DNA from: an uncultured delta proteobacterium
Lineage (GTDB): Bacteria > Desulfobacterota > Desulfobacteria > Desulfobacterales > Desulfosalsimonadaceae
Assembly: GCA_963826785.1 (NCBI GenBank)
Contig: CAWGYD010000006.1
Coordinates: 96,001 to 160,000, forward strand
Direction of reading: 5' to 3'
DNA length: 64,000 nucleotides
Part shown: piece by piece, positions 26,054 to 39,747 of the stretch
Position numbering within the stretch: position 1 is the first letter of the stretch
How the letters are laid out: each line of letters opens with the position of its first letter
Translations under genes and position numbers: made by a program
The notes under the pieces: generated by a model
The model's database searches: none
Seen by the model: the letters and a program-made list of their open reading frames with translations, nothing else
Told to the model about the DNA's origin: nothing

Positions 26054-26082
26054 TTGACACAACGTGTCATTGAAGATATGGT
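26054..26082 (+). promoter_or_regulatory. Sigma70 promoter with overlapping palindromic operator
   Basis: TTGACA (26054-59) N17 TATGGT (26077-82); perfect TGACAC-aac-GTGTCA at 26055-26069. Confidence 0.65.
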
Positions 26083-26114
26083 TATTTTTTTTTCTTCGGA
26101 CACAAGGAGTGGTC

Positions 26115-27113
26115 ATGTTCAGACAAGATCGTTGCGACCTCTGCGGGGACTGCCTGGTGAACTGCAGGTGGATTGAAGCCGGGCGGGACCAGGCGGCCGA
26201 ATGGATGAAAGCCATGATGGAGGGCCGGCCCACCCCGGTGCCGCAGCAGTGCATCACCTGCTATGCCTGCAATGAAACCTGCCCGCAGGACGCCAATCCC
26301 TTCGACCTGATCGCCGCCCTGCAGGAAAAAGCCGCCATCGTTTCCCACCAGCAGATTTCAGAGGCGGAAAACCGGCTGTCCTTTTCCGGCGAACTGCGGG
26401 ATCTTCCGGCCGCCGACCGGATCATGAGCATCTGCGTTTTCGGCAAGACCGACGGCCACCTGATCCAGGGCGAACTTTACGACCTGCCGAAAATCGGTGG
26501 AAAACCCTACTTCTGCTGGATCCTGTTCAGCCACATGGGCGCGGAAAGCATCCAGCACCGGCACGCCAGGGAATTTGTGGACCGGCTGACCGCCACCGGC
26601 GCAAAAGAGGTGGTCTGTTTTCACGACGACTGTTACGCCATGCTGGCCAAGATCGCCCCGGAATACGGCATCGAGGTCCCCTTTCGCCCCGTCCACCTGG
26701 CGGAATACCTGGTGGAATACCTCAAAGCCAATGCGGGGCGCCTCCGGCCTCTCGATCTTGCCCTGGCCTACCAGCGTCCCTGCGCCTCCCGGCATACGCC
26801 GGAGAAGGAGCATTTCATCGACGCGCTTTTTGAACTGTGCGGCTCCACCCGGGTGGCGCGCACCTACGACCGGGGAAACGCCATGTGCTGCGCCGGGGTG
26901 AAACTGCTGCTGGGCATGGGCGACCCAACCCCCGAGCAGGAAAAAAATATCGCCGATGCCAAGGCGGCGGGGGCCAAGGCCATGGTCTGCCTTTGCCCCA
27001 TGTGCATGCACTCCTTGCATCAAATGGCCGCCGATGCGGGGCTCCCCCTGATTTTCATCGGTGACCTGGCCCGGATGGCGCTTGGCGAAATTGATATGCC
27101 CCCTTCATTATAA
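26115..27113 (+). CDS. (Fe-S)-binding CCG-domain oxidoreductase
   Basis: CDLCGDCLVNC, CITCYACNETCP, HDDCY, YQRPC, MCCAG, CLCPMC; ATG after AAGGAG. Confidence 0.87.
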   Translation: MFRQDRCDLCGDCLVNCRWIEAGRDQAAEWMKAMMEGRPTPVPQQCITCYACNETCPQDANPFDLIAALQEKAAIVSHQQISEAENRLSFSGELRDLPAADRIMSICVFGKTDGHLIQGELYDLPKIGGKPYFCWILFSHMGAESIQHRHAREFVDRLTATGAKEVVCFHDDCYAMLAKIAPEYGIEVPFRPVHLAEYLVEYLKANAGRLRPLDLALAYQRPCASRHTPEKEHFIDALFELCGSTRVARTYDRGNAMCCAGVKLLLGMGDPTPEQEKNIADAKAAGAKAMVCLCPMCMHSLHQMAADAGLPLIFIGDLARMALGEIDMPPSL

Positions 27114-27123
27114 GGAGAGTGAA

Positions 27124-28902
27124 ATGAGTTCCCCCAAGCCTCCCCGCCGGATATCCGGCGACGACTTCTATGATGCTCAATTTTTTGAAGGGTACCGGCG
27201 GATCGGATATCCGGAAGAGTGGATCGAAGAAGGCCGGCAGCATGATCCGGGGGATGCCTATGTCATCAGCCACCCCAGCTGGTTTTCCGAACCCATGCCC
27301 GAAGTGCCCATGGTCTCCATCTATCAGCTGTTCAAGCAGACCGTGGTCGCCCACCCGGACGATACGGCCGTCATTTTCCTGGACAAGCCCATCACCTATG
27401 CCGCCTTAGATGACATGATCGGGCGCTATGCCGCCCTCCTTTGCGATCTGGGCATCAAAAAAGGCGATGTGGTGGCCACCATGCTCCCCAATTCCCTGCA
27501 GCACCTGGTGGCTTTCTATGCCGCGGCCATGATCGGCGCCGTGCACAGCCCCGTCGATGTCATGTACCAGGCCAAGGAGATCGAGGCCCAGCTGCGTGAT
27601 TCCGGGGCCAGGACCATCCTGATCATGGACCTGCTCTACGATAAGATCGAAAAACTCAAACAGGAAGGGCTGATCGATCATATCATCATCACCCGGGTGA
27701 GGGACTGGTCCAAGCCGGATGCGCGGGCCCCCCGGGCGCTGAAAATCTATTTCGACATCCCCAAGCGCCCCATGCCCGGGGCCATCGACATGTTCGCCGC
27801 CATTGAAAAGCTTTCCCCGCTTGCCGAACCGGCAACGGTCGCGCCGAAAACCGATCCCGCCCTCCTTTTGTACACCGCCGCCATTACCGGCAAATCAAAA
27901 GGCGTCATCGAAACCCATTTCAACCTGGTGTTCAATTCCATTTCCCATGCCCATGCATTCCGGCCATCCGGAATGGAGCGGGAAGTGAATTTTTCCATCA
28001 TGCCCATGTTTCACACGTCGGGGTATCTGCTTCACCAGCTTCCCGCCATCTACCAGGGGGGAACGGTCATCCTGATCCCGATATTCGACGTGGAAGATTC
28101 CTTCCGGATCATCGACACCTACGGGGTAAACGTCATCTTCGCCCCCCCCACGTTCTTCATTGCGCTGATGGCCCGAAAGGACCTGATGGAAGCCTATGAG
28201 CTCGACCGCATCCGGGTCACCATCTCCTGCGCCGCACCCGTCAAGAAGGAGGTTCAGGAACAATGGCGAAAAATGACCGGGCTTACACTCATCAACGGGT
28301 GGGGGATGACCGAAACCAACAGCGGCGGGATCATTTCCATTTCCGGGATCAAGGAGAAACTCGACTCCATCGGCGTTCCGCTCTATTCCGAAGTCAAAAT
28401 CACGGACATGGAAGGAAACATCCTGGCCCGGAACGAGGAAGGGGAAATCTGCTACCGGGGGCTTCAGGTTGCCGCCGGATACCTGAACCAGCCCGATGAA
28501 ACCGAGTCCACGTTCATGCCGGACGGCTGGCTTCGCACCGGTGACCGGGGATATATCGATGACGAGGACTTCGTCTTTTTTTCGGGCCGCATGAAAAATA
28601 TTGTCATTTCTTCCGGCTACAACATTTCCCCCCTGGAGGTCGAACACACGCTGTATCTGCATCCGGCGGTGGAGCAGGCGGTGGTGGTGGCCCAGCCGGA
28701 CCCGAAACGGGGAGAGAGCCTCAAGGCGGTCATTTCGCTGAAGCCGGAATACCATGGAGCCGTCACCGAAGAGGACATGATCAGCTTCTGCCGGGAGAAC
28801 CTGGCGGCTTTCAAGGTCCCCCGCATCATCGAGTTCCGGGAAACCCTGCCCAAGAGCGCGGTGGGAAAAATCCTGCGCCATGCGTTGCGTGATCCGGAAT
28901 AG
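27124..28902 (+). CDS. Long-chain acyl-CoA ligase (AMP-binding)
   Basis: YTAAITGKSKG (variant A3), GWGMTE, LRTGD, PKSAVGKILR. Confidence 0.9.
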   Translation: MSSPKPPRRISGDDFYDAQFFEGYRRIGYPEEWIEEGRQHDPGDAYVISHPSWFSEPMPEVPMVSIYQLFKQTVVAHPDDTAVIFLDKPITYAALDDMIGRYAALLCDLGIKKGDVVATMLPNSLQHLVAFYAAAMIGAVHSPVDVMYQAKEIEAQLRDSGARTILIMDLLYDKIEKLKQEGLIDHIIITRVRDWSKPDARAPRALKIYFDIPKRPMPGAIDMFAAIEKLSPLAEPATVAPKTDPALLLYTAAITGKSKGVIETHFNLVFNSISHAHAFRPSGMEREVNFSIMPMFHTSGYLLHQLPAIYQGGTVILIPIFDVEDSFRIIDTYGVNVIFAPPTFFIALMARKDLMEAYELDRIRVTISCAAPVKKEVQEQWRKMTGLTLINGWGMTETNSGGIISISGIKEKLDSIGVPLYSEVKITDMEGNILARNEEGEICYRGLQVAAGYLNQPDETESTFMPDGWLRTGDRGYIDDEDFVFFSGRMKNIVISSGYNISPLEVEHTLYLHPAVEQAVVVAQPDPKRGESLKAVISLKPEYHGAVTEEDMISFCRENLAAFKVPRIIEFRETLPKSAVGKILRHALRDPE

Positions 28903-29066
28903 GAAGTCGGCCCTGAAATTAATTGGCGTTGCCAGCGTCGGGTTCATCCCCTGGCCCAAAGGACACGAACCGGCGGCATAAACCAGATGGTGGCCGGACG
29001 AAACATAGATATTTGATCAAAAAGACGGTTTCGTTCCGCCACTGAATATTGAGTGTCCCATATCCG

Positions 29067-30461
29067 ATGAATACCAATTCAAAGTTCTTCTCCGGACTCG
29101 CTGCGGCTGTCTGCATCTTTTTTCTGACGGGCGCGCCGGCGGCTTTTGCCCAAACGGAGACATACGCCCTTTCCGACCTGTACCAGGCGGCCCTGAAATC
29201 CGCCCAGCAGATCCGCATTGCCAAAAACCAGTTGTTTATCGCCGAAAAAGACCAAAACCGGGCCTTTTCCGTGCTGCTGCCCCAGCTGTCCGCCTTTGGC
29301 GATTACATCCGCTACAGCGAAAGCAGCCTGATTCAGCCGGAAACCAATTATGATTACGGCATCAAGCTCCAGCAGCAGTTTACGTTAAACGGCAAGGAAC
29401 TGATCCTGCTGAGGGCGGCAAAGGACACCATCAAGCAGCGCCGGTATGACCTGGATTCGGTTAAGGAATCCTATCTTTACCAGGTGGCGGTGGCCTATTA
29501 TGAAGTAGTGAACCGGAAAAAGCAGGTGGAGATTCTCAGGGAAAATGTCAAGCGGCTGACCGCCTATCGGGATGCGGTCAGGATCAAACTCAAGCTGGAG
29601 GAAGTCCCCAAGACCGACCTGCTTCGGACGGAAGCCGAGCTTTCCGGCGCCGCGGCCGAGCTGATCCGGGCGGAAAATGAATGGGTGTACGCCCGATCCG
29701 CCCTGGCCCGCATGGTGAACATTTCCCCGGATTTTTCCCTGTCCCCCCCGGAAACGAGAGTAAACGCGCAGATGCCCATCCAGGGGCGGCTGGATGAGTT
29801 TGTCGATATCGCCCTGAAAAGCCGGGCGGACATGAAATCCGCTGAGATGTCGGTGAGCCTTGCCGATGATGACATTTCCATATCCAAGGGAGACTACTGG
29901 CCGGTGGTGGGGATCGAAGCGGGCTACCTGGCCCAGGAGACCGACCCTTCCGTGCTGTCCCAGGACAGCATATACGGCGCCGCCAACATCAACCTGATCC
30001 TGTTCGACTGGGGACTTCGCAAGGGAACGGTCAGCCAGAACCGGGCCCGGAAACGCATCGCGAGCCTCCAGGCGGATGAACTGGCCAAGCAGATCGCCCT
30101 GGAAGTGGAAAGGGCCTGGCTGGCCTTGAACACGGCCCAGAATACCATTACCGCCCTGCAGGATAAGCTGGTTTTTTCCCGGGCGGCTTACGAGGCCGTC
30201 ACCCTGCAGTTCAAGCTGGGTCAGGCCGACAGCCTGGACGTGCTGGACGCCAATACCACCCTGCGCAATGCCGAGCGCGAACTGACGGAAGCCGAATTCG
30301 TCCTTTCCCTGTCTAAAATCGCGCTGCAGCGGGCCCAGGGGATTTTTCTCGATCAAATCACCGCCGGCGACATGAGCCGCGGCTGTGCTCCCGAAAAATC
30401 AGATGATGCCGCGCAGCGGGGTGGGGCGCTTTCAAGGAACCTGATAAAGAACTCTTTTTAG
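29067..30461 (+). CDS. TolC-family outer membrane efflux protein
   Basis: Signal peptide; two OEP repeats (LLPQLS, YWPVV, LFDWG, FKLGQADSLDVLDA). Confidence 0.9.
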   Translation: MNTNSKFFSGLAAAVCIFFLTGAPAAFAQTETYALSDLYQAALKSAQQIRIAKNQLFIAEKDQNRAFSVLLPQLSAFGDYIRYSESSLIQPETNYDYGIKLQQQFTLNGKELILLRAAKDTIKQRRYDLDSVKESYLYQVAVAYYEVVNRKKQVEILRENVKRLTAYRDAVRIKLKLEEVPKTDLLRTEAELSGAAAELIRAENEWVYARSALARMVNISPDFSLSPPETRVNAQMPIQGRLDEFVDIALKSRADMKSAEMSVSLADDDISISKGDYWPVVGIEAGYLAQETDPSVLSQDSIYGAANINLILFDWGLRKGTVSQNRARKRIASLQADELAKQIALEVERAWLALNTAQNTITALQDKLVFSRAAYEAVTLQFKLGQADSLDVLDANTTLRNAERELTEAEFVLSLSKIALQRAQGIFLDQITAGDMSRGCAPEKSDDAAQRGGALSRNLIKNSF

Positions 30462-30570
30462 ATTTCGCCAAAGTACGTGCACGGACTGCGGGCCGCATTC
30501 CCCTTGAAGTGAATCAATTTTGTATTTTCAGAGCGTTGACAGGAAAAACCATTCCGGGAGATCATGACAG

Positions 30571-31953
30571 ATGACGGACGACCGACAGGACACACCCGCC
30601 CCCCCGTTTGCCAAAAAACTGCTGAAACGGCTGTGGGGGCTTCTTCCCATTGCGGCGCTGGTCGCAATCATCACGGTGCTTTCCATGATGATTGCGGCCA
30701 AAACAGACAAGCTCGATGCCCTGAAGAAGGGGATCGACACACTGGAGGCCATGGAACTGGCCATCGGCCAGGCCGATGGCGTGGTGTCCGTGGTCCAATC
30801 CGCAAAGGATCCAAACGACGCCGCCCAGAAGCTGGCCGAGAAGTTTTCACTTACCCCGGATCAGGCCAAAAGCATCCTGCACATGTCCATCGCTTCTTTG
30901 GCCGCATCTGAAAAGGCCCGGCTGGAAAAGCAGATCGCCTATATCAAGGGGCAGATCGCGGCCAACAAGCTCGACATCGAACCCGAGCGCCTGGATGTGA
31001 ACGTGGTGGCCCTTGCGCTTTCCCCCCGTGAACTCAGGGACCGGATCAACCTGCCCGGGGTGGTGGAACCCTGGGTGAAATACAATATCGTGGCCGAGGT
31101 CCGGGGGGAGGTCAGGGAAAAGCGGATTGAAAAAGGGACCCGGGTGAAGAAAGGGGATGTCATCGCGATACTGGATGACCGGGACCATGAAATTGCCCTG
31201 GAGGCGGCCAAAGCCTCCTATGACACCGCCCTGGCCTCGAAAAACCGGCTGGAAAAACTCTATGCCGAACAACTGGCCAGCCGCTCCCAGTTAGACGATA
31301 TCACCGCCCAGATGGAACAGTACAAGGCCCAGATGGACAGCGCCCTGCTCAACCTGGAGCGCTCCACCATCCGCAGCCCCATCGACGGGATCATCAACGA
31401 CCTGTTTGTGGAAAAAGGAGAGTACGTCAACGTGGCCGAACCCGTGGCCGAAGTCATCCGGATGGACAGGATCAAGGTCAGCGTGGGGATTCCCGAATCC
31501 GACGTGAGCGCGGTGGGCAGAGTGTCGGAATTTACGGTCGCCTTCGATGCCTTGAACGGCCGGGCGTATCCGGCAAAAAAGCACTTCCTGTCGCGCTCCA
31601 GCGATCCCAATGCCCGGCTCTACAAGCTGGAACTGGAAATCGACAATCCGGACAACGAGATCCTGCCGGACATGTTCGCCCGGGTGGATATCATCAAGAA
31701 GGAGGTGCCCGAAGCCATAACCATCCCCCTTTATTCCATCATCACCTTAAACGATGTCCAGACCGTATACGTGGTCAACGACAATTTCGCCCATGCCCGG
31801 CAGATCAAGACCGGGATCCAGGAAGGCTGGCGCATCCAGGTCACCGAAGGGCTCTCCCCCGGAGACCGGGTCATCGTGGTGGGACACCGCCGGGTCAGCG
31901 ACGGCCAGAAGGTCAATCTGATCCGCACGATCGACAGCATGACGGAATTGTAA
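30571..31953 (+). CDS. RND periplasmic adaptor (MFP) with N-terminal GyrA-like helical insertion
   Basis: TM anchor; GTRVKKGDVIAILD, alpha-hairpin, TIRSPIDG, LPDMFARV, GLSPGDRVIVVG; about 90 extra residues after the TM. Confidence 0.92.
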   Translation: MTDDRQDTPAPPFAKKLLKRLWGLLPIAALVAIITVLSMMIAAKTDKLDALKKGIDTLEAMELAIGQADGVVSVVQSAKDPNDAAQKLAEKFSLTPDQAKSILHMSIASLAASEKARLEKQIAYIKGQIAANKLDIEPERLDVNVVALALSPRELRDRINLPGVVEPWVKYNIVAEVRGEVREKRIEKGTRVKKGDVIAILDDRDHEIALEAAKASYDTALASKNRLEKLYAEQLASRSQLDDITAQMEQYKAQMDSALLNLERSTIRSPIDGIINDLFVEKGEYVNVAEPVAEVIRMDRIKVSVGIPESDVSAVGRVSEFTVAFDALNGRAYPAKKHFLSRSSDPNARLYKLELEIDNPDNEILPDMFARVDIIKKEVPEAITIPLYSIITLNDVQTVYVVNDNFAHARQIKTGIQEGWRIQVTEGLSPGDRVIVVGHRRVSDGQKVNLIRTIDSMTEL

Positions 31954-31971
31954 CATGCAGGAGTCTTTGAT

Positions 31972-34900
31972 TTGATTATTTCCGATACCGCCGTTAAAAA
32001 CCGGGTCAGCGTGGTCATCCTGTCCCTGATCATCCTGGTGCTGGGGATCTACTGCTACAGCGCCATCCCCCGGGAGGACGAACCCGATATCACCATCCCC
32101 TATGTGTTCGTGTCCACGCCGTACAAGGGGGTGGCCGCCTCGGACATCGAGACCGCCGTCACCATTCCCATCGAAAAAAAGCTCAAAGGGCTCGAAAACG
32201 TCAAGAACATCAAATCGGTGAGTTCCGAGGGCATCTCCAACATCAACATCGAGTTTATTCCCGGCACCAACATCGATGACGTCCTGCAGAAGGTCCGGGA
32301 CAAGGTGGATGAAGCCAAACGGGACCTGCCCACCGACCTGGAGAACGACCCCATGATCTATGAGGTCAATCTCTCGGAACTGCCCATCGTGGTCTATTCC
32401 CTTTCCGGAACCGCGGGGATGATTGCGCTCAAACGGATCGCCGACGACCTGGAAGAGGACATCGAGTCGATTCCCGGGGTGCTGGAAGTCGATATCACCG
32501 GCGGTCAGGAACGGGAAATCATCATCGAAGTGGACCCGGACAAGATGGCCTACTACCGGATTCCCATCACCACCTTCCAGCAGGTGGTGGCATCTGAAAA
32601 CACCAACACCTCCGGCGGCGCCATCACCCTGGGCCACGGCCGGTATCAGCTGCGGGTGCCGGGCGAGTTTACCACCCCGGATGAAATTTACGGGCTGGTG
32701 GTGGGAAGCTTCAACGGAAGGCCGGTCTACCTGAAGGACATGGCCAAGGTGGTGGACGGGTTCAAGGATGAAGACAGCCGCTCACGTTTGGACGGAAGGG
32801 ATGCGGTCAACATCGCCGTGAAGAAGCGCGCGGGGGAGAACATCATCCAGATCGTGGACGCGGTGGACCGGCTCATTAATGATCAGAAGGGCGCCTGGCC
32901 CCGGGGTACGGAAATCATCAAGCTGATGAACAAGGCCAAGGGCATCCGCCTGATGCTGGCCGACCTGGAAAACAACATCCTTTCCGGGCTGCTGCTGGTG
33001 GTGGTGGTGCTCCTGTTCGCCCTGGGATTCCGCAATGCCACTATGGTGGGACTGGCCATCCCGTTTTCCATGCTGCTTTCCTTCATGATCATCTATGCCA
33101 TGGGGATCACCTTGAACATCGTGGTCCTCTTTTCCCTCACCCTGGCACTGGGCATGCTGGTGGACAACGCCATCGTGATCATCGAAAACATCTACCGGTA
33201 CATGGAGCAGGGCGTTCCCCGCAGGGAAGCCACCATGCGGGCCACCTCCGAAGTCGCCTATCCGGTGATCGGCTCCACCCTGACCACACTGGCGGCGTTC
33301 GCCCCCATGATCTTCTGGCCGGGGATCATGGGCGAATTCATGAAATTTCTGCCCATCACCCTGATCATCACCCTCACCTCCAGCCTGTTCGTGGCCCTGG
33401 TGATCAACCCCGCCCTGGCTTCTTATTTCATGAAGGTCAAAACACCCGCCGACCGGCCGGCGATAAGCGCGGAAGAGATCGAGGCCGTGGGAGAAAAGCC
33501 CATTGCCATACAGGGCGTTATCCTGAGGATGTACCGGCGCTTTCTGGAATATGCCCTGGATCACCGGCTGTCGGTGGTGGCGGCATCCTTTCTGCTCCTG
33601 GTCATCCTCATGCAGGTCTGGAAACTGACCATCGGCCTGGAAAAGCCGGTGGAATTCTTCCCCAGCCTGGATCCCAAGAGCGCCTATGTGAACGTGGACC
33701 CTCCGGAAGGGGCGGACCTGGACTACATGGACCATGTGATCCGGGAGATTGAAATCGCGGTCAACCACCCGGATTTGCCCCCGGGGCTCTCATTTGCGGA
33801 AAAATACCGGCAGGCCTATGTTCCGCGACAGCATACCCGGATGTCCGGCGAAACATTTGAAGGGCCGTCGGACATTTCCAATATCGAACACATCTATGCC
33901 ACGGCCAAAAAGAAGGCCGGCAGCTCCCTTTTTTCCGAATATTCGGATAACCGTCTGGGCATCCAGTTTTTAGATTACGAGGACCGCAAAACCCCGTCGG
34001 CCAAAGACATCGAAATCATCCGGCAGCGGGTGGCCGAAATTCCCGGGGCCCGGATCACCGTGGCCGAGGAGAAGGGGGGGCCGCCCACGGGCGCGCCCAT
34101 CAACATTGAAATCGCCGGCGAGGATGTCCGCCTGCTGGGGGAAATCGCGGCCCAGGTGAGAAGCATCGTCGCCAAAATTCCCCACGTAGTGGATGTAAAA
34201 GACGATTACATGGATGCCCTCCCCTCGGTGCAGATCGATATCGACCGCCAGAAGGCGGCCCTGTTCGGGCTGTCCACCAACCTGATCGGGTTTGCATTAA
34301 AAACCGCTTATAACGGCCTGGATGTGTCCACCTACCGGGAGGGCGGTGACGACTATGACATCACCGTCAAATTCACCGAGGATGACCGCAGGGTCACGGA
34401 TGTGCTCCGGAAGCTGATGATCCCCACCCCGGTGGGGCAGCTGGTGCCCCTGACCACGCTGGCCAGCATCAAGTACGCAGGCAGCATCGGCGACATCAAC
34501 CGCATCAACCATGAACGGGTGGTGACGGTCAAGGCCGACGTGGACGAATCCAAGGTCCCCGGATCGGTGGCCAAAAACCAGGCGGAAGCGCTGCTGGCCG
34601 ATTTCGTGCTTCCCCCCGGGTATGCCATCTCCTTTACCGGACAGAACGAGCATGAGAAGGAATCGAGCGAATTTCTCACCAAGACCTTTGTCATCGCCAT
34701 ATTCTTGATTTTTTTGATACTGGTCACCATTTTCAATTCCGTGGGCCAACCCCTGATCATCATGACCTCGGTGATCCTCTCCCTGGGCGGCGTCTACCTG
34801 GGCCTGACCGTCATGCGGTATCCCTTCGGCATCATCATGTCCGGGGTGGGGGTGATCTCACTGGCCGGGGTGGTGGTGAACAACGCCATCGTTTTAATCG

Positions 34901-35259
34901 ATTATATCAACAAGCTGCGAGACCGGGGCATGGGTCTGCGCGACGCCATCATCTCCGGCGGCGCCACCCGGCTGCGGCCGGTGATGCTCACCGCCATCAC
35001 CACCATTTTAGGCCTGGTCCCCATGGTCACCGGCATTTCCATCAACTTCAGGGCGCTGTCCATTTCCCTGGTCAGCGAAACCTCCCAGTACTGGAAATCC
35101 ATGTCCGTGGTGGTCATTTTCGGCCTGCTCATGGCCACCCTGCTGACCCTGGTGGTGGTCCCCACCCTCTATTCCCTGTTTGCCACGGCCCCGGACTGGT
35201 TTTCTCTCCAGTACACCCGAATCAAAAAATGGTACTGGAAACCTTTTTCGACCCTGTAG
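31972..35259 (+). CDS. RND efflux transporter permease (AcrB/MdtC family)
   Basis: IPREDEPDITIP, GMLVDNAIVIIEN, VVVNNAIVLID, TRLRPVMLT, LVVVPTLY. Confidence 0.95.
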   Translation: MIISDTAVKNRVSVVILSLIILVLGIYCYSAIPREDEPDITIPYVFVSTPYKGVAASDIETAVTIPIEKKLKGLENVKNIKSVSSEGISNINIEFIPGTNIDDVLQKVRDKVDEAKRDLPTDLENDPMIYEVNLSELPIVVYSLSGTAGMIALKRIADDLEEDIESIPGVLEVDITGGQEREIIIEVDPDKMAYYRIPITTFQQVVASENTNTSGGAITLGHGRYQLRVPGEFTTPDEIYGLVVGSFNGRPVYLKDMAKVVDGFKDEDSRSRLDGRDAVNIAVKKRAGENIIQIVDAVDRLINDQKGAWPRGTEIIKLMNKAKGIRLMLADLENNILSGLLLVVVVLLFALGFRNATMVGLAIPFSMLLSFMIIYAMGITLNIVVLFSLTLALGMLVDNAIVIIENIYRYMEQGVPRREATMRATSEVAYPVIGSTLTTLAAFAPMIFWPGIMGEFMKFLPITLIITLTSSLFVALVINPALASYFMKVKTPADRPAISAEEIEAVGEKPIAIQGVILRMYRRFLEYALDHRLSVVAASFLLLVILMQVWKLTIGLEKPVEFFPSLDPKSAYVNVDPPEGADLDYMDHVIREIEIAVNHPDLPPGLSFAEKYRQAYVPRQHTRMSGETFEGPSDISNIEHIYATAKKKAGSSLFSEYSDNRLGIQFLDYEDRKTPSAKDIEIIRQRVAEIPGARITVAEEKGGPPTGAPINIEIAGEDVRLLGEIAAQVRSIVAKIPHVVDVKDDYMDALPSVQIDIDRQKAALFGLSTNLIGFALKTAYNGLDVSTYREGGDDYDITVKFTEDDRRVTDVLRKLMIPTPVGQLVPLTTLASIKYAGSIGDINRINHERVVTVKADVDESKVPGSVAKNQAEALLADFVLPPGYAISFTGQNEHEKESSEFLTKTFVIAIFLIFLILVTIFNSVGQPLIIMTSVILSLGGVYLGLTVMRYPFGIIMSGVGVISLAGVVVNNAIVLIDYINKLRDRGMGLRDAIISGGATRLRPVMLTAITTILGLVPMVTGISINFRALSISLVSETSQYWKSMSVVVIFGLLMATLLTLVVVPTLYSLFATAPDWFSLQYTRIKKWYWKPFSTL

Positions 35260-35286
35260 CCGTTCGGGTATGGTGAGATCAGATTG

Positions 35287-35329
35287 GAAATCGTGCGCTT
35301 AAACGGCACACGTGCTCGTGCACGATTTC
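35287..35329. terminator. Hairpin downstream of the RND operon
   Basis: gaaatcgtgc ... gcacgatttc perfect 10-bp inverted repeat. Confidence 0.45.
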
Positions 35330-35592
35330 AGAAAAATTGAGCGCCTGTCGCACGATTACACGGCGCACTTTTGCAGCCGACTGTTTCTCCGTATTTGCAA
35401 GTCCGCAGAAACCTTCCAATTTGCAATTGAATTTTCCTGTTTTTGTCTTGTATAGTGTATTGTGAAAATTCGTTCACGTGCATAACCACATGTACCTTTA
35501 CGTGCACGTCAAACCAGGGACCTGAATGCGCTAATCGTGATGCCTCTCTTAGAAATGACATATCGGCCGGGATTCTTTATGGGTAAGGCGCC

Positions 35593-38500
35593 ATGAAATA
35601 CCAGAAACTCCTGTATTTCATGCAAAACGTGGGAAAAGACCCCTCGGCGCTGATGTTCGAGGATTACCTGACCGGCCTGAACAACCGCCGGTTCCTGCTG
35701 CATCACATGAAACACAACATCAACTGGGAGACCTTAAACGAAACCCCGGTTTCCCTGCTGATGATGGATATCGATTTTTTCAAGCGGATCAATGAGCAGT
35801 ACGGCCATGGCGTGGGCGACCAGGCCCTGATCCATATCACCGGCCTCATCAAGGAGGTGGCCAAAAACAAGGGGATTCCGGTGTTGTATGCCGGGGACCA
35901 GTTCATCATTCTCTGCCCCAACTGCGCCAAGAAGGACTCCCTGGCCATGGGCGCGGAGCTTGTGCGCAAGGTCAATGAGCATCTTTTTTTCTCCGCTGAA
36001 GCCGGCACCGCCATCCCCGTTACCCTGAGCATCGGCATCGCCACTGCCCCGGACGATGCCGGCAGCGGCCGGGACCTCATCGGCCAGGCCGCCAATGCCT
36101 TGAACCACGCCAAGGAATTCGGCCGCAACCGCCATGTGGACGCCGGCATGGTGAGCCGCCAGGCCCTGCAATACCTGGAAAGCGCCGGCATCGTCGGCCG
36201 CAAACGCCAGTTCGAGCAGGTCGGCGCCGTACTGAAGCAATTCAGTGAGGGCCAGAACCCATTTTTGATCATCGACGGCGCTCCCGGCATGGGAAAAACG
36301 AGTTTCCTGGACACCCTCCAGCGGAACCTTGAAAAATCCAAAGCCAGCCCCGTCCGGGTGGCCGGGGTGCACCAGGAATCATTTCGGCCATATTACCTGA
36401 TATCCTACATCATCATCGAGCTGATGAACCGGCGGGAGGACAAGGGCACCGGCATCTTAAGGGCCCTGGACGAAAATGAGATCGACCGCCTGGCCCATAT
36501 CATCCCCCAGATCGAGGATTCCGAGGTGCCCATGCCCGAAGATGATCCGGCGCACCGGGATGAAATCTTCAAATCGTTTATCCATTTCTTCGCATCGCTT
36601 ACGGGGGATGCCCCCCTGATCCTGCTGATCGACGACCTGCATTACGTCGACCCGGCCTCGCTTCACCTCATGCGGGTGATCATGCGGGAAAAATCGATCC
36701 GCCTGTTTGTCTGCGCCACCGCCGCCGAGGAAAAGGAGACCCGTCCCGAAGCCATTCCCCTGGAGCTCTTCCGCACGGCATACGGCAGCGAACTGCGCAT
36801 CAGGCAAATCCGGCTGACGCCCCTGTCCGGAGACGACATCACCAAATACATGACCATCACGTTTCCGGGCATCGAGGTACCCCCGCGGCTGACCCGCGAA
36901 CTGCTGGAGATCTCGAGGGGAAACCCGCTGTTTGTCATGGAAATCCTGCGGCGGATGATCAATGACCGGAAGATCGTCCAGTCCGATCACCAGTGGAAAA
37001 TCACCCGCCTGGAACGGCGCTACTTTCCCCGTTCCCTGGAAGACATCATCCAGAATAAACTCGATGCGCTGGATATCGAGAGCAAACGTTTCCTGGAATG
37101 TGCCGCCGCCTTCGGGGAATCGATTTCACTTTCCATGCTCACCGGCAATTACAATGAAAAATCCTCCCGTATTCATGATTTCTTAAATCAGGGGGTCAGC
37201 CAGGGGATCGTTCGGTCCGATTTTACGGATAATGATGAAAATATCCGGTTTTTGAGCAAACGCATCCGGGAGATCATCTACGACGGCATCCATACGGACC
37301 AGCGCAAGAATCTCCATGAAGAGATCGGCGCCTATCACGAAAAACTCTACAAGCAGCACCTGCTGCCTTCCGCCTCATTTCTGGCCTATCATTTCGCCCA
37401 TTCCCCCAACACGGAAAAAGCCAAGACCTACGACCAGCTCCAGAGCGAACTCAACCGCCGGGTATTCAACCACAAGGAAATCGACAAGTATGTGAAGGAA
37501 GCGGCGGGAGACGATGCTGCGGGTGTGGAAGAGATCGGCGACGAAGCGGTCAGCGAGGAAACCCGGGGCGTGGTGCCGATCATGCTGCGGTCTTTGATCG
37601 TGGCCGTACGAAACATCCGGCTTTACCCGGCGGACAGCAAATCGGTCACCAGCGCCGTGGATCAACTGGAGCAGCAGATCAACCAGATACTTGCCGATGT
37701 GGACCGGTTTTCCATCATAGAGGAAAAAGGGCACCTCTTGATCAACCAGGAAGAGATCGACACCGGCAATTTCAAATCCATCGCCGAAAAGATCATCGGC
37801 CTGTGGGATCAACTGCAGCTCAAGAGCCTCACTTTCATCAGGGGCGTCACTGCCGAAGAATTGCGCAAGGTGCTCGACCGCATCAGCCGGCTGGAGGTCA
37901 AATCCATGACCCCGGATTTCTGGCAGATGGCGATGCGCGAGCTTGGCCTGTCGCATGTCGTTCCCCGCCAGGTGAAATACACCAAGGTTTCCGGGGAGGC
38001 TTCGACTCCCGGAGATCCGGCAGCGGTGGAACTGCCGGATGAAGCCGAGGAACTCTACAGTCTAAGCGAAAAACCCATCGACGACAAACAGCTCAACCAG
38101 ATCCAGCGGGTGATCGCCAGCATACTGGGGGCGCACACCAAATTGAAACTCTACCCTGACAGCGGCCCGGTGGCCAAAAATGCCGTTCAGCAGGTCGTCT
38201 TTGATCTGAAGCAGTATCTCGCCCGGCGCCAGGCCTTGACCATTTCAAGGGTGGATAATACCCTGCTCATCAACGGCGTCAAGGTCGACACCTCCCGGTT
38301 TGAAACCCTGGCCGCCGGTCTGCACAAATTTCTGCGGGATGCGCGCCTGTACAGCATCACTTTTTTAAAAACCGTCACCCCCAAGGAACTCATTGCATTT
38401 TTTCCCGCCTCCACTCAACCGCCGGACGATGCGCTCACTTCCGGGTACTGGCAGAAATTCGCCCAGGATCGCAAGATCACGGGGATTCTGTTCAACCGGC

Positions 38501-39747
38501 GGGTCTATGATGTCATGGATGCCCTGCCGGGAAGCGCGGACAATGAAGCGGCGGAACCGGCCGTGGGGCAGAAAAAAGGAAGCGTCAAAGAGATGGATGA
38601 AAAATCGCTGCCCGAAAGACTCCGGGAACTGTTCCTGACCGGCCAGTTCAAAATGGCCAAAACCATCCTGGACCGGCTGGTGACGGAATACCAGAAAGCG
38701 GATGCCGCGGGTCGAAAGAAACAGATCGCCCTGTTTAAAACCATCGTGCACCCGAAAAAATGGCGGCCGACCGCTGCATACCTGAAGTTTTACCTCTCCC
38801 CGGTCATGGCGATTTTTGATCTGGAGAAAACCCCGGAACACATCCGCCAGATCGCCGTACTGCTCCAGGAGAGTGCCGTTAATTTCATCGTATTCGGAGA
38901 ATACGCACTGGCATCCTGGGTGTATGGGGCGCTTCAGGAGAAATCGGGGAAGGACGCCGTCTTTACCCGATTCAAGCTGGAAGCAAAAGTCGCCGACGTC
39001 ATCGCCCATGACCTGAGGTCAGATGATGCCGCACGGCAGCAGGAAGCCTATCAGCTGTTGAGCAGCATGGATCAGACCGCAATGCCCATGCTCATGGATG
39101 TCATCCGGCAGGAGGAGAACGTCAGGGCAAGACGCCTGGCAGCGGATCTGCTGGCTAAAAACCGGGTGGGCGCCGAGGATCTGATGAAAAAAACATTGAT
39201 GAATGATCCCGATCCCCGGGCCCGCGCGCGCATCCTGGAGGTGATCGATACCGTCACCACCGATCTGAGCTCTGAACTCGCCTATGTCCTTTCGGACACC
39301 CGGGAATCAGTGCGCAGAGCGGCGCTGCTTCTGGCCGAACGCTTAAATTCGCCCCCTGTGATCGATCTGCTGATCCAGTTTACCCGCACCGAAGACACGG
39401 AACTGGCCGTATCCGCCATCAATTGTCTGGGCCGGTTGAAAGCATCGGCCGCAGTTCCCGAACTGACCCGCATCATTGAGACTTCGGATGTCAAAGAACG
39501 CCTGATCGCCGCATGCCGGGCCCTGAGCCAGATCGGCGACAGCTCGGGAGCCGCCGCCCTGAATCGGATTCTTTATCCCAAACGGCGGCTCTTCTTCCGG
39601 CCCAAATACGATACCGCCGTGCGTATCGCCGCCGCCTATGCCGTATCCCAGCTGCCCGATTCCCAATCGGACGCTTTGATAAAGGCTTTGTCCGAAGACC
39701 CCGATCCGCGGATCCGGGAAGCGGTAAAGAACGTGAAAAAAAGCTGA
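35593..39747 (+). CDS. Multidomain signalling protein: degenerate GGDEF + AAA/STAND-type ATPase + two repeated domains + HEAT repeats
   Basis: DYLTGLNNRR, MDIDFFKRINEQYGHGVGD, AGDQF; GAPGMGKT, LLIDDLH, GNPLF; two LYP..LLIN..ITF repeats; C-terminal HEAT-like repeats. Confidence 0.9.
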   Translation: MKYQKLLYFMQNVGKDPSALMFEDYLTGLNNRRFLLHHMKHNINWETLNETPVSLLMMDIDFFKRINEQYGHGVGDQALIHITGLIKEVAKNKGIPVLYAGDQFIILCPNCAKKDSLAMGAELVRKVNEHLFFSAEAGTAIPVTLSIGIATAPDDAGSGRDLIGQAANALNHAKEFGRNRHVDAGMVSRQALQYLESAGIVGRKRQFEQVGAVLKQFSEGQNPFLIIDGAPGMGKTSFLDTLQRNLEKSKASPVRVAGVHQESFRPYYLISYIIIELMNRREDKGTGILRALDENEIDRLAHIIPQIEDSEVPMPEDDPAHRDEIFKSFIHFFASLTGDAPLILLIDDLHYVDPASLHLMRVIMREKSIRLFVCATAAEEKETRPEAIPLELFRTAYGSELRIRQIRLTPLSGDDITKYMTITFPGIEVPPRLTRELLEISRGNPLFVMEILRRMINDRKIVQSDHQWKITRLERRYFPRSLEDIIQNKLDALDIESKRFLECAAAFGESISLSMLTGNYNEKSSRIHDFLNQGVSQGIVRSDFTDNDENIRFLSKRIREIIYDGIHTDQRKNLHEEIGAYHEKLYKQHLLPSASFLAYHFAHSPNTEKAKTYDQLQSELNRRVFNHKEIDKYVKEAAGDDAAGVEEIGDEAVSEETRGVVPIMLRSLIVAVRNIRLYPADSKSVTSAVDQLEQQINQILADVDRFSIIEEKGHLLINQEEIDTGNFKSIAEKIIGLWDQLQLKSLTFIRGVTAEELRKVLDRISRLEVKSMTPDFWQMAMRELGLSHVVPRQVKYTKVSGEASTPGDPAAVELPDEAEELYSLSEKPIDDKQLNQIQRVIASILGAHTKLKLYPDSGPVAKNAVQQVVFDLKQYLARRQALTISRVDNTLLINGVKVDTSRFETLAAGLHKFLRDARLYSITFLKTVTPKELIAFFPASTQPPDDALTSGYWQKFAQDRKITGILFNRRVYDVMDALPGSADNEAAEPAVGQKKGSVKEMDEKSLPERLRELFLTGQFKMAKTILDRLVTEYQKADAAGRKKQIALFKTIVHPKKWRPTAAYLKFYLSPVMAIFDLEKTPEHIRQIAVLLQESAVNFIVFGEYALASWVYGALQEKSGKDAVFTRFKLEAKVADVIAHDLRSDDAARQQEAYQLLSSMDQTAMPMLMDVIRQEENVRARRLAADLLAKNRVGAEDLMKKTLMNDPDPRARARILEVIDTVTTDLSSELAYVLSDTRESVRRAALLLAERLNSPPVIDLLIQFTRTEDTELAVSAINCLGRLKASAAVPELTRIIETSDVKERLIAACRALSQIGDSSGAAALNRILYPKRRLFFRPKYDTAVRIAAAYAVSQLPDSQSDALIKALSEDPDPRIREAVKNVKKS

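Follow-up and report, generated by a model that had tools for sequence, protein, structure and literature searches.

An RND efflux operon with an extended periplasmic adaptor

The 64,000-nt stretch of DNA analysed here (referred to below as the window; positions 96,001 to 160,000 of the forward strand of contig CAWGYD010000006.1, assembly GCA_963826785.1) comes from an uncultured delta proteobacterium of the family Desulfosalsimonadaceae and encodes a tripartite efflux pump whose periplasmic adaptor carries an 80-residue insert that is, judging from its sequence, homologous to the C-gate module of the DNA gyrase subunit GyrA. The genes for the outer membrane factor (OMF), the adaptor (or membrane fusion protein, MFP) and the resistance-nodulation-division (RND) permease lie on the same strand with intergenic gaps of 109 and 18 bases (29049-35259, +; Table 1). 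This gene order is kept across orthologous loci, and the OMF gene is retained 5’ of the adaptor in many of them. In addition to the Pfam matches given in Table 1, the OMF gene matches the NCBIfam model TIGR01844 (5.7e-42) and the permease matches the model RND_permease_2 (5.1e-175), in the first case under the family cut-off and in the second under the subfamily cut-off. A GGGAG motif is found 10 bases 5’ of the adaptor ATG, and a scan of positions 28800-35700 for promoters and terminators returned sites no more numerous than in shuffled sequence.

Table 1. Features of the efflux operon and of its adaptor, in window coordinates. Residue numbers refer to the adaptor; A2 is the alignment of 20 inserts, in which residue 1 corresponds to residue 42 of the adaptor. 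PAP, periplasmic adaptor protein.
Feature	Position	Strand	Basis or detail
OMF (TolC-like), first gene of the efflux operon	29049..30461	+	Pfam OEP, 5.7e-48
RND periplasmic adaptor (MFP/PAP), 460 aa, insert-bearing	30571..31953	+	HlyD_D23, HlyD_3, PF00521, TIGR01730
Predicted N-terminal membrane anchor, residues ~21-43	30631..30699	+	only hydrophobic segment
GyrA C-gate-like helical module, 80-residue insert, residues 56-135	30736..30975	+	clean indel vs orthologues
Predicted homodimer interface, part 1, residues 64-84 (A2 23-43)	30760..30822	+	helix 1 end, helix 2, next loop
Predicted homodimer interface, part 2, residues 102-114 (A2 61-73), ILHMSIASLAASE, consensus ILHMPLSxLV	30874..30912	+	complex prediction
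Adaptor core (membrane-proximal, beta-barrel, lipoyl and hairpin domains), residues ~144-449	31000..31917	+	TIGR01730, residues 147-449
RND permease, 1095 aa	31972..35259	+	Pfam ACR_tran, 1.9e-204

The 460-aa open reading frame (ORF) is the RND periplasmic adaptor of an OMF-MFP-RND pump, as seen from both its operon context and the family models that it matches, namely TIGR01730 (230.6 bits; cut-off 94.9) and the Pfam families HlyD_D23 (5e-21, 75.4 bits; cut-off 30) and HlyD_3 (2.2e-19). A weak Pfam match to an Xre-like helix-turn-helix family was set aside, as its 20 bits fall below the cut-off of 25.8. In a Kyte-Doolittle plot with 19-residue windows the mean exceeds 1.6 only at centres 25-37 and reaches no more than 1.08 past residue 60; the hydrophobic segment is preceded by the basic residues K15, K16, K19 and R20, and the adaptor N-terminus has no lipobox cysteine. 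With a single hydrophobic segment, everything past residue 43 should be found on one side of the membrane together with the adaptor core, so the insert, which is located between the anchor and the core, is probably periplasmic.

The initial annotation had described about 90 extra residues at this place, in a peptide that corresponds to residues 44-131 of the ORF (88 residues; window 30700-30963). Four orthologues from the same order (44-55% identical) are collinear with the adaptor up to ‘...KKG’, lack the next 80 columns and rejoin it at the linker ahead of ‘NVVAL’ (columns 59-138 of the orthologue alignment, as confirmed in an alignment of 81 rows). Extra residues are therefore present as a clean indel, but they number 80 and their boundaries differ from those first proposed by about 12 residues. 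Orthologues without the insert align with the adaptor from approximately residue 131-144 on, and their anchor-to-core tether is about 20 residues long. The GC content of the insert equals that of the rest of the gene (0.588). One orthologue (L040; JAABTS010000005.1, L040:1699-2961) has a different, 36-residue insertion at the same tether site (residues ~59-94); it does not match the profile of the 20 inserts, which rules it out as a remnant of the module. The tether may be an insertion hot spot.

Homology of the insert to the GyrA C-gate

The Pfam family PF00521 (DNA_topoisoIV) matches the adaptor with 35.2 bits, above its curated gathering cut-off of 31 (E 8.4e-9; profile positions 321-414 of 432, envelope residues 38-133), and matches the insert alone with an E-value of 3.5e-9. 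The NCBIfam gyrA model TIGR01063 could be aligned to residues 50-133 without a single gap (84 residues, model positions 364-447, 9e-11), whereas the ParC-type NCBIfam models are three residues shorter over the insert region. When PDB sequences were searched with phmmer, the top match was GyrA of B. subtilis (4ddq, E 2.2e-5). A phmmer search of 1.84 billion representative proteins with a single insert (a query of 105 residues) yielded 67 matches at E<=1e-3 for the whole library, and 55 of these were GyrA, ParC or fragments of GyrA/ParC. Further matches were seven insert-bearing MFPs (three full-length and four short fragments), three other small proteins with the module (see below) and two unassigned, very short fragments that match PF00521. 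Three Ig-like/PKD-repeat surface proteins among the 67 (P0004, P0026 and P0038) matched the query in 4-13 short stretches at E-values of 5.7e-16 to 2.5e-4; they have no PF00521 signal, were judged spurious as relatives of the insert and look like repeat or composition artefacts of phmmer. A word-index search of the insert region among adaptor-length proteins, which is an insensitive method, returned only the window’s own protein.

With the A2 profile, the best PDB match was S. aureus GyrA (E 1.3e-15, 60.5 bits, low bias), aligned over 81 gapless columns to residues 366-446, and all of the 49 best PDB sequences were GyrA or ParC, including the isolated E. coli GyrA14 fragments that were crystallised with CcdB (1x75, 4ely and 4elz). 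The near gap-free resemblance to GyrA/ParC that had initially been noted by eye thus extends, in profile searches, over 81-84 residues with no gap at all. The same genome encodes two full-length PF00521 genes elsewhere, of which its own GyrA (840-aa frame) matches the A2 profile gaplessly with 51.5-53 bits, and the second (783-aa frame) with 32.4 bits and a three-residue gap. These comparisons indicate that the insert is homologous to the GyrA C-gate module and, because GyrA aligns without gaps and ParC with a gap of three residues, support a GyrA-type rather than a ParC-type relationship. The adaptor itself is, by the same kind of comparison, not a topoisomerase: only 94 of the 432 PF00521 positions are represented, and the winged-helix domain, the catalytic-tyrosine core, the tower and the propeller are absent. 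The C-terminal beta-propeller repeats (PF03989) were not among the nine Pfam families that match the adaptor at E<=10.

Predicted fold of the insert

AlphaFold2 was run on the 20 rows of A2, with no gyrase rows present, and returned a confident model (predicted local distance difference test score, pLDDT, 85.8; predicted TM-score 0.74) in which a long helix leads into a knob made of three or four short helices, from which a second long helix runs back. The long helices have about 25 residues, and the helices of the model span A2 residues 2-25, 27-36, 40-50, 55-62, 66-69 and 71-89. The top Foldseek matches of this model are all gyrase, with TMq values of 0.80-0.84 and root-mean-square deviations (rmsd) of 1.4-1.8 A over 90 columns (for example 4ddq_B, with E 3e-4, TMq 0.82 and rmsd 1.5 A over 90 columns). 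In an exhaustive structural alignment (VIA) to 48,161 PDB representatives, ranks 1-12 were taken by type IIA topoisomerases, with Z-scores from 13.8 (5iwi_A; rmsd 2.4 A, 94 residues aligned) down to 7.2, ranging from bacterial GyrA/ParC to the enzymes of yeast, human, trypanosome, African swine fever virus and phage T6, while the best non-topoisomerase chain reached a Z-score of 6.5. The insert is therefore predicted to fold like the GyrA C-gate. This fold match is not fully independent of the known structures (the network was trained on gyrase structures), while the sequence statistics are.

It had been proposed in the initial annotation that a topoisomerase dimerisation module was co-opted into a periplasmic adaptor, with the lack of a profile or structural match to gyrase, or a predicted fold without the C-gate helical bundle, named in advance as outcomes that would speak against this. 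Both the matches and the bundle were found, and the profile, fold and structural-search results together support the proposal. The role suggested along with it, that the module pre-pairs MFP protomers or gates pump assembly, is a putative one.

Distribution, origin and selection

Among the genomes of 40 relatives, 11 of the 24 from the same family and one of the 16 from other families of the order have a full-length orthologue with the insert (49-63% identical). Insert-free orthologues were found in four further genomes, and in the rest this query found nothing closer than distant paralogues. When 185,579 species genomes were scanned, 233 relatives were returned, the best 80 of which were used; going by their titles, all but three of these 80 come from metagenome-assembled genomes (MAGs) that are Desulfobacterales-type or ‘deltaproteobacterial’. 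Removal of one distant paralogue (L021) and 16 duplicate loci left 81 unique orthologues, 20 with the 80-residue insert, 60 with nothing at this place and one, L040, with its unrelated insertion, so that the suggested survey of homologues did recover the same insertion, restricted to a clade. In a collection of 5.8 billion proteins, the A2 profile found 22 clusters of 458-475 aa with the same architecture (95-132 bits), and those that are named are called only ‘efflux RND transporter periplasmic adaptor subunit’ or ‘membrane fusion protein’. Below these clusters there is a score gap, and then true GyrA proteins follow from 70 bits down, with Clostridia-type MAGs among the named rows.

In a tree from which the 200 N-terminal alignment columns were left out, 18 of the 20 insert-bearing rows fall into one clade (SH-aLRT 100) and the other two (L016 and L048) into an unresolved region, which gives a minimum of three changes. 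Constraining all 20 rows to stay together costs 0.89 log-likelihood units (p-AU 0.50), and a single gain of the insert is, on these sequences, not rejected and not shown. The acquisition is old, and the donor lineage cannot be named because 80 residues are too few.

The ratio of nonsynonymous to synonymous substitution rates (dN/dS, NG86) in the insert was 0.12-0.35 in nine of ten pairs (for the tenth, dS was not computable), as compared to 0.10-0.16 in the core. Neither frameshifts nor stops were found in the insert in 20 species-level genomes and 22 metagenomic clusters, and the insert is kept by purifying selection. G54, L58 and A84 are invariant, and the stretch D-Q-A-K-A-x-L-H-M-P-L is strongly conserved.

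Residues kept and lost relative to gyrase

Six basic residues of S. pneumoniae GyrA, K369, R373, R416, R425, R427 and R428, lie along the cavity and the C-gate interface and are important for supercoiling (PMC8368997). Residue n of this protein corresponds to A2 column n-360, a mapping that the R-L-R-R pattern of the S. aureus alignment confirms. At the equivalents of these six residues, in the same order, lysine or arginine is found in 0, 0, 2, 1, 0 and 1 of the 20 inserts, as compared to 26/31, 39/41, 58/98, 86/98, 29/98 and 69/98 of the GyrA/ParC proteins. The 98 proteins of this comparison set are all matches to the insert itself and are thus biased toward likeness with it, which makes the contrast a conservative one. 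The basic patch for T-segment DNA is not retained in the inserts. At the same time, inserts and GyrA/ParC share the majority residue at 15 framework positions (L17, A23, I27, D28, V30, I33, A43, L47, Q57, A58, A60, M64, L66, L69 and I88 in A2 numbering). Judged by these alignments, the module no longer has the surface that faces DNA in gyrase, and its hydrophobic skeleton is preserved.

A putative pairing device for adaptor protomers

As far as is known, the module serves gyrase only as the C-gate, which is one of two interfaces between the GyrA subunits. The two coiled-coil arms of gyrase exit this gate on the same side, and with the arms so placed two modules could clasp each other while both anchors sit in one membrane. 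The region of E. coli GyrA covered by GyrA14 (aa 363-497) mediates GyrA dimerisation (PMC3001019), which bears out the earlier statement that the matched domain forms the GyrA dimer interface. In the gyrases of B. subtilis and M. tuberculosis the C-gate is closed and GyrA is dimeric up to ~5 M guanidinium chloride (PMC12041858), and the source of the module is one of the most stable dimer interfaces known.

When two copies of the insert were given to complex prediction, the interface score ipSAE was 0.62, 0.62 and 0.63 in three runs, as compared to 0.00 for the best control, with a partner pLDDT of at least 81 and a contact agreement between runs of at least 97%; among proteins with solved structures, 20 of 30 pairs and one of 23 single chains attain this ipSAE mark. 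The predicted homodimer interface lies on the knob, with two-fold contacts V72-V72 and S106-S106 (A2 31-31 and 65-65), and includes five of the positions where inserts and gyrase share the majority residue (A2 M64, L66, L69, I27 and V30).

An adaptor dimer has been put forward as the functional unit of such pumps, and the pump as a trimer of adaptor dimers, with CusBA cited (PMC4446572, PMC13328181). We propose that, in a Desulfobacterales ancestor, the tether linking the anchor to the membrane-proximal domain gained a copy of a GyrA-type C-gate, and that the module would have retained the activity of the C-gate in gyrase, which is two-fold self-association via the knob. Two adaptor protomers would thereby be tied together beside the inner membrane, and this clasp would pre-form or stabilise the adaptor dimer, the repeating unit of an assembly of 3 RND : 6 adaptor : 3 OMF. 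We consider it somewhat more likely than not (about 0.55) that the insert pairs adaptor protomers non-covalently near the inner membrane. The clasp could equally bridge neighbouring pumps. A more speculative extension, which we consider unlikely, is that the C-gate is still an openable clasp, holding adaptor pairs as arches by the RND trimer or as bridges between pumps and so locking or releasing the assembly. If true, this would mean that a protein gate was moved from DNA transport to the control of an envelope machine, and no other type IIA topoisomerase module would be known to act outside the cytoplasm and outside DNA metabolism.

Several observations weigh against a pairing role. The homodimer score may reflect memory of solved gyrase dimers, in which case it would be a measure of likeness and not of binding, and conservation in the interface columns is barely higher than elsewhere in the insert (mean entropy 1.50 vs 1.62 bits). 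The insert evolves faster than the core, being 28-49% identical to the insert of the window where whole proteins are 44-62% identical. Since 60 of the 81 orthologous adaptors do without the module alongside much the same RND partner, it is not needed for basic pump function. The RND partner does not appear to follow the insert either: over its first ~830 residues, a comparison of 18 insert-linked with 56 insert-free permeases found no indel that tracks the insert, and only six substitution columns separate the two groups, most of them clade markers that L016 and L048 do not share. (The permease is 63-86% identical in orthologous loci with or without the insert, and the RND partners of the 60 insert-free adaptors are 57-74% identical to that of the window.) A C2 clasp has no direct fit to the neighbours in a six-fold ring, so that the flexible 12-residue linker would have to let the modules reorient. 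Finally, a single-sequence AlphaFold2 model of the full-length adaptor reached a pLDDT of only 45.2 and does not give the placement of the module relative to the core.

Alternative explanations

Two alternatives to pairing are improbable to a similar degree. In the first, the gyrase-derived fold would serve as a docking surface for another partner, such as the porter domain of the RND permease, the OMF, a small periplasmic protein or a substrate. The surface has been remodelled, given that the basic patch and other surface residues were replaced, the conserved DQAKAxLHMPL stretch could bind another molecule, and the N-terminal domain of CusB sets a precedent for an accessory adaptor domain that binds cargo (PMC4446572). 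On the other hand, there is no additional gene between those of the OMF, the MFP and the RND permease, the permease shows no insert-tracking feature in the part compared, and the residues best shared with gyrase (A2 M64, L66, L69, I27 and V30) fall in the predicted self-interface.

In the second, for which we see about as little room, the module would be a rigid helical strut or spacer that makes the tether longer and stiffer and binds nothing specifically. It does sit exactly in the tether, which is so short in insert-free orthologues, and the 36-residue insertion of L040 at the same site indicates that the tether tolerates or uses extra length; the lack of clearly better conservation in the interface columns also fits a spacer. 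However, a hairpin brings the chain back to where it started, so little net length is gained, and a spacer would have no need of a hydrophobic knob surface shared with gyrase, nor would one expect a homodimer to be predicted for it where the controls score 0.00.

It is less probable still that the insert is a tolerated passenger, that is, an old in-frame insertion in a disordered linker with no function. Its absence from 60 of the 81 orthologues and its faster evolution could be read in this way, but the dN/dS of 0.12-0.35 in all computable pairs (9/10), the absence of frameshifts and stops in the 20 genomes and 22 clusters, the retention of fold-defining residues at 28-49% identity and the confident predicted fold all speak for a constrained domain.

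RND pumps draw substrates from the periplasm, and one could imagine a periplasmic C-gate decoy that captures gyrase-directed toxins or compounds and hands them to the pump, though we regard this as very improbable. Over-produced GyrA14 does protect cells from CcdB, likely by titration (PMC3001019), but CcdB acts in the cytoplasm, and of the E. coli GyrA residues that contact it (Q456, D460, R462 and Q464, which correspond to A2 59, 63, 65 and 67) none is kept, the inserts having K (17/20), H (17/20), P (16/20) and S (9/20) at these positions; a decoy for CcdB was rejected on these residues. That the resemblance is one of generic coiled coils or helical hairpins without homology is extremely improbable: helical hairpins are common and many unrelated helical chains align to the model with Z-scores of ~5-6.5, but this reading was tested and the results went against it, with a sequence-only E-value of ~1e-15 at low bias, a gapless alignment over 81-84 residues, topoisomerases at ranks 1-12 well above other folds, and a single insert finding real GyrA at E-values of 1e-6 to 1e-3 among 1.84 billion proteins.

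Comparison with known systems

The proposed pairing device can be compared with its presumed source and with other adaptors. With the C-gate of GyrA (GyrA14 in E. coli; approximately residues 366-446 in S. aureus) it has in common a homologous sequence, a predicted fold and 15 framework residues, as well as a predicted two-fold self-contact via the knob. Unlike the C-gate, it would be periplasmic, lies within an efflux adaptor and has shorter helices (~25 residues in the model); the adaptor has no winged-helix domain, tower or C-terminal propeller, and both the basic T-segment patch and the CcdB contacts were lost. With AcrA/MexA-type RND adaptors (TIGR01730) the protein shares its core domains and an operon with an OMF and an RND permease, and its predicted N-terminal membrane anchor would be a counterpart of those of MacA and HlyD-type adaptors (PMC13328181), while the 80-residue topoisomerase-derived module between anchor and core sets it apart from canonical RND adaptors.

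Built-in pairing of adaptors is seen in the fused dimeric PAP DSY0927, in TriA/TriB, in tandem-fused AcrA and in the leucine zipper of the EmrA anchor helix (PMC4446572, PMC13328181). These fix the adaptor dimer as the assembly unit, which is the role proposed for the insert, but they do so by fusion, by paralogues or through the anchor helix, whereas the insert is proposed to pair adaptors non-covalently via a borrowed domain. The accessory domains of CusB (N-terminal) and SilB (C-terminal) are likewise extra domains on a four-domain adaptor core, although they bind metal and relay it to the pump (PMC4446572), and the insert is dissimilar to them, with no Met- or His-rich metal site.

In the full-text literature covered, with subscription journals outside the coverage, we found no description of a topoisomerase-derived module in a periplasmic adaptor, and reviews of adaptors (one of them, in Chem Rev, available in part) do not, in the text available, mention gyrase or topoisomerase as an adaptor domain. 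Precomputed Pfam annotation already marks PF00521 on insert-bearing adaptors, so the raw match is visible in databases; no interpretation of it as a topoisomerase-derived accessory module of an RND adaptor was found in the literature covered. As domain libraries label the module only ‘DNA_topoisoIV’, they can mislead automated annotation. The module is found in one clade of uncultured bacteria, and we infer its function.

The recruitment and ordering of the six adaptors around the RND trimer is still debated, and the case that reviews make for the adaptor dimer rests mostly on engineered fusions and two-adaptor pumps. If the proposed role is correct, a naturally acquired dimerisation domain would be an independent evolutionary vote for the adaptor-dimer model, as well as a natural counterpart of fused-dimer adaptors and TriA/TriB pairs, and it would make adaptor pairing easier to study structurally. 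The reuse of part of an essential cytoplasmic DNA enzyme in the cell envelope is a surprising cross-compartment transfer of a domain.

Other proteins with the module

Modules detected via PF00521 or gyrA models were also seen outside topoisomerases in three small proteins. In P0008 (315 aa, a ‘hypothetical protein’ of Nocardia iowensis), two nearly identical modules stand in tandem after two Clp_N repeats, while P0067 (194 aa) has two modules, and P0021 (97 aa) is a single stand-alone module. They differ from the insert in having no evident membrane anchor, and are thus presumably cytoplasmic, in their different partners (Clp_N) and in having kept basic ‘MGMRRF’/‘MQLRRL’ motifs. Because it is also present outside topoisomerases, for example in actinobacterial Clp_N proteins, the GyrA C-gate module looks like a portable, autonomous domain without a family model of its own.

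Other features of the locus

The RND permease is longer than the 1021-position ACR_tran profile, and its Pfam match is split in two, the better part aligning residues 3-598 to profile positions 1-588, suggesting that the protein likely has an extra segment past residue ~600. This segment seems to be common to insert-bearing and insert-free loci, because no discriminating indel was found over the first ~830 residues compared.

Directly 3’ of the operon (35593-39747, +) lies a gene for a 1384-aa protein that combines GGDEF (1.5e-35), AAA_16 (1.6e-19) and HEAT (1.6e-15) matches in an unusual, large signalling architecture. On the other side, a cysteine-rich ORF of 349 aa (26064-27113, +) has several CxxC motifs and no Pfam family at E<=1e-5, and its 3’ end overlaps the start of an AMP-binding, acyl-CoA-ligase-like gene (27061-28902).

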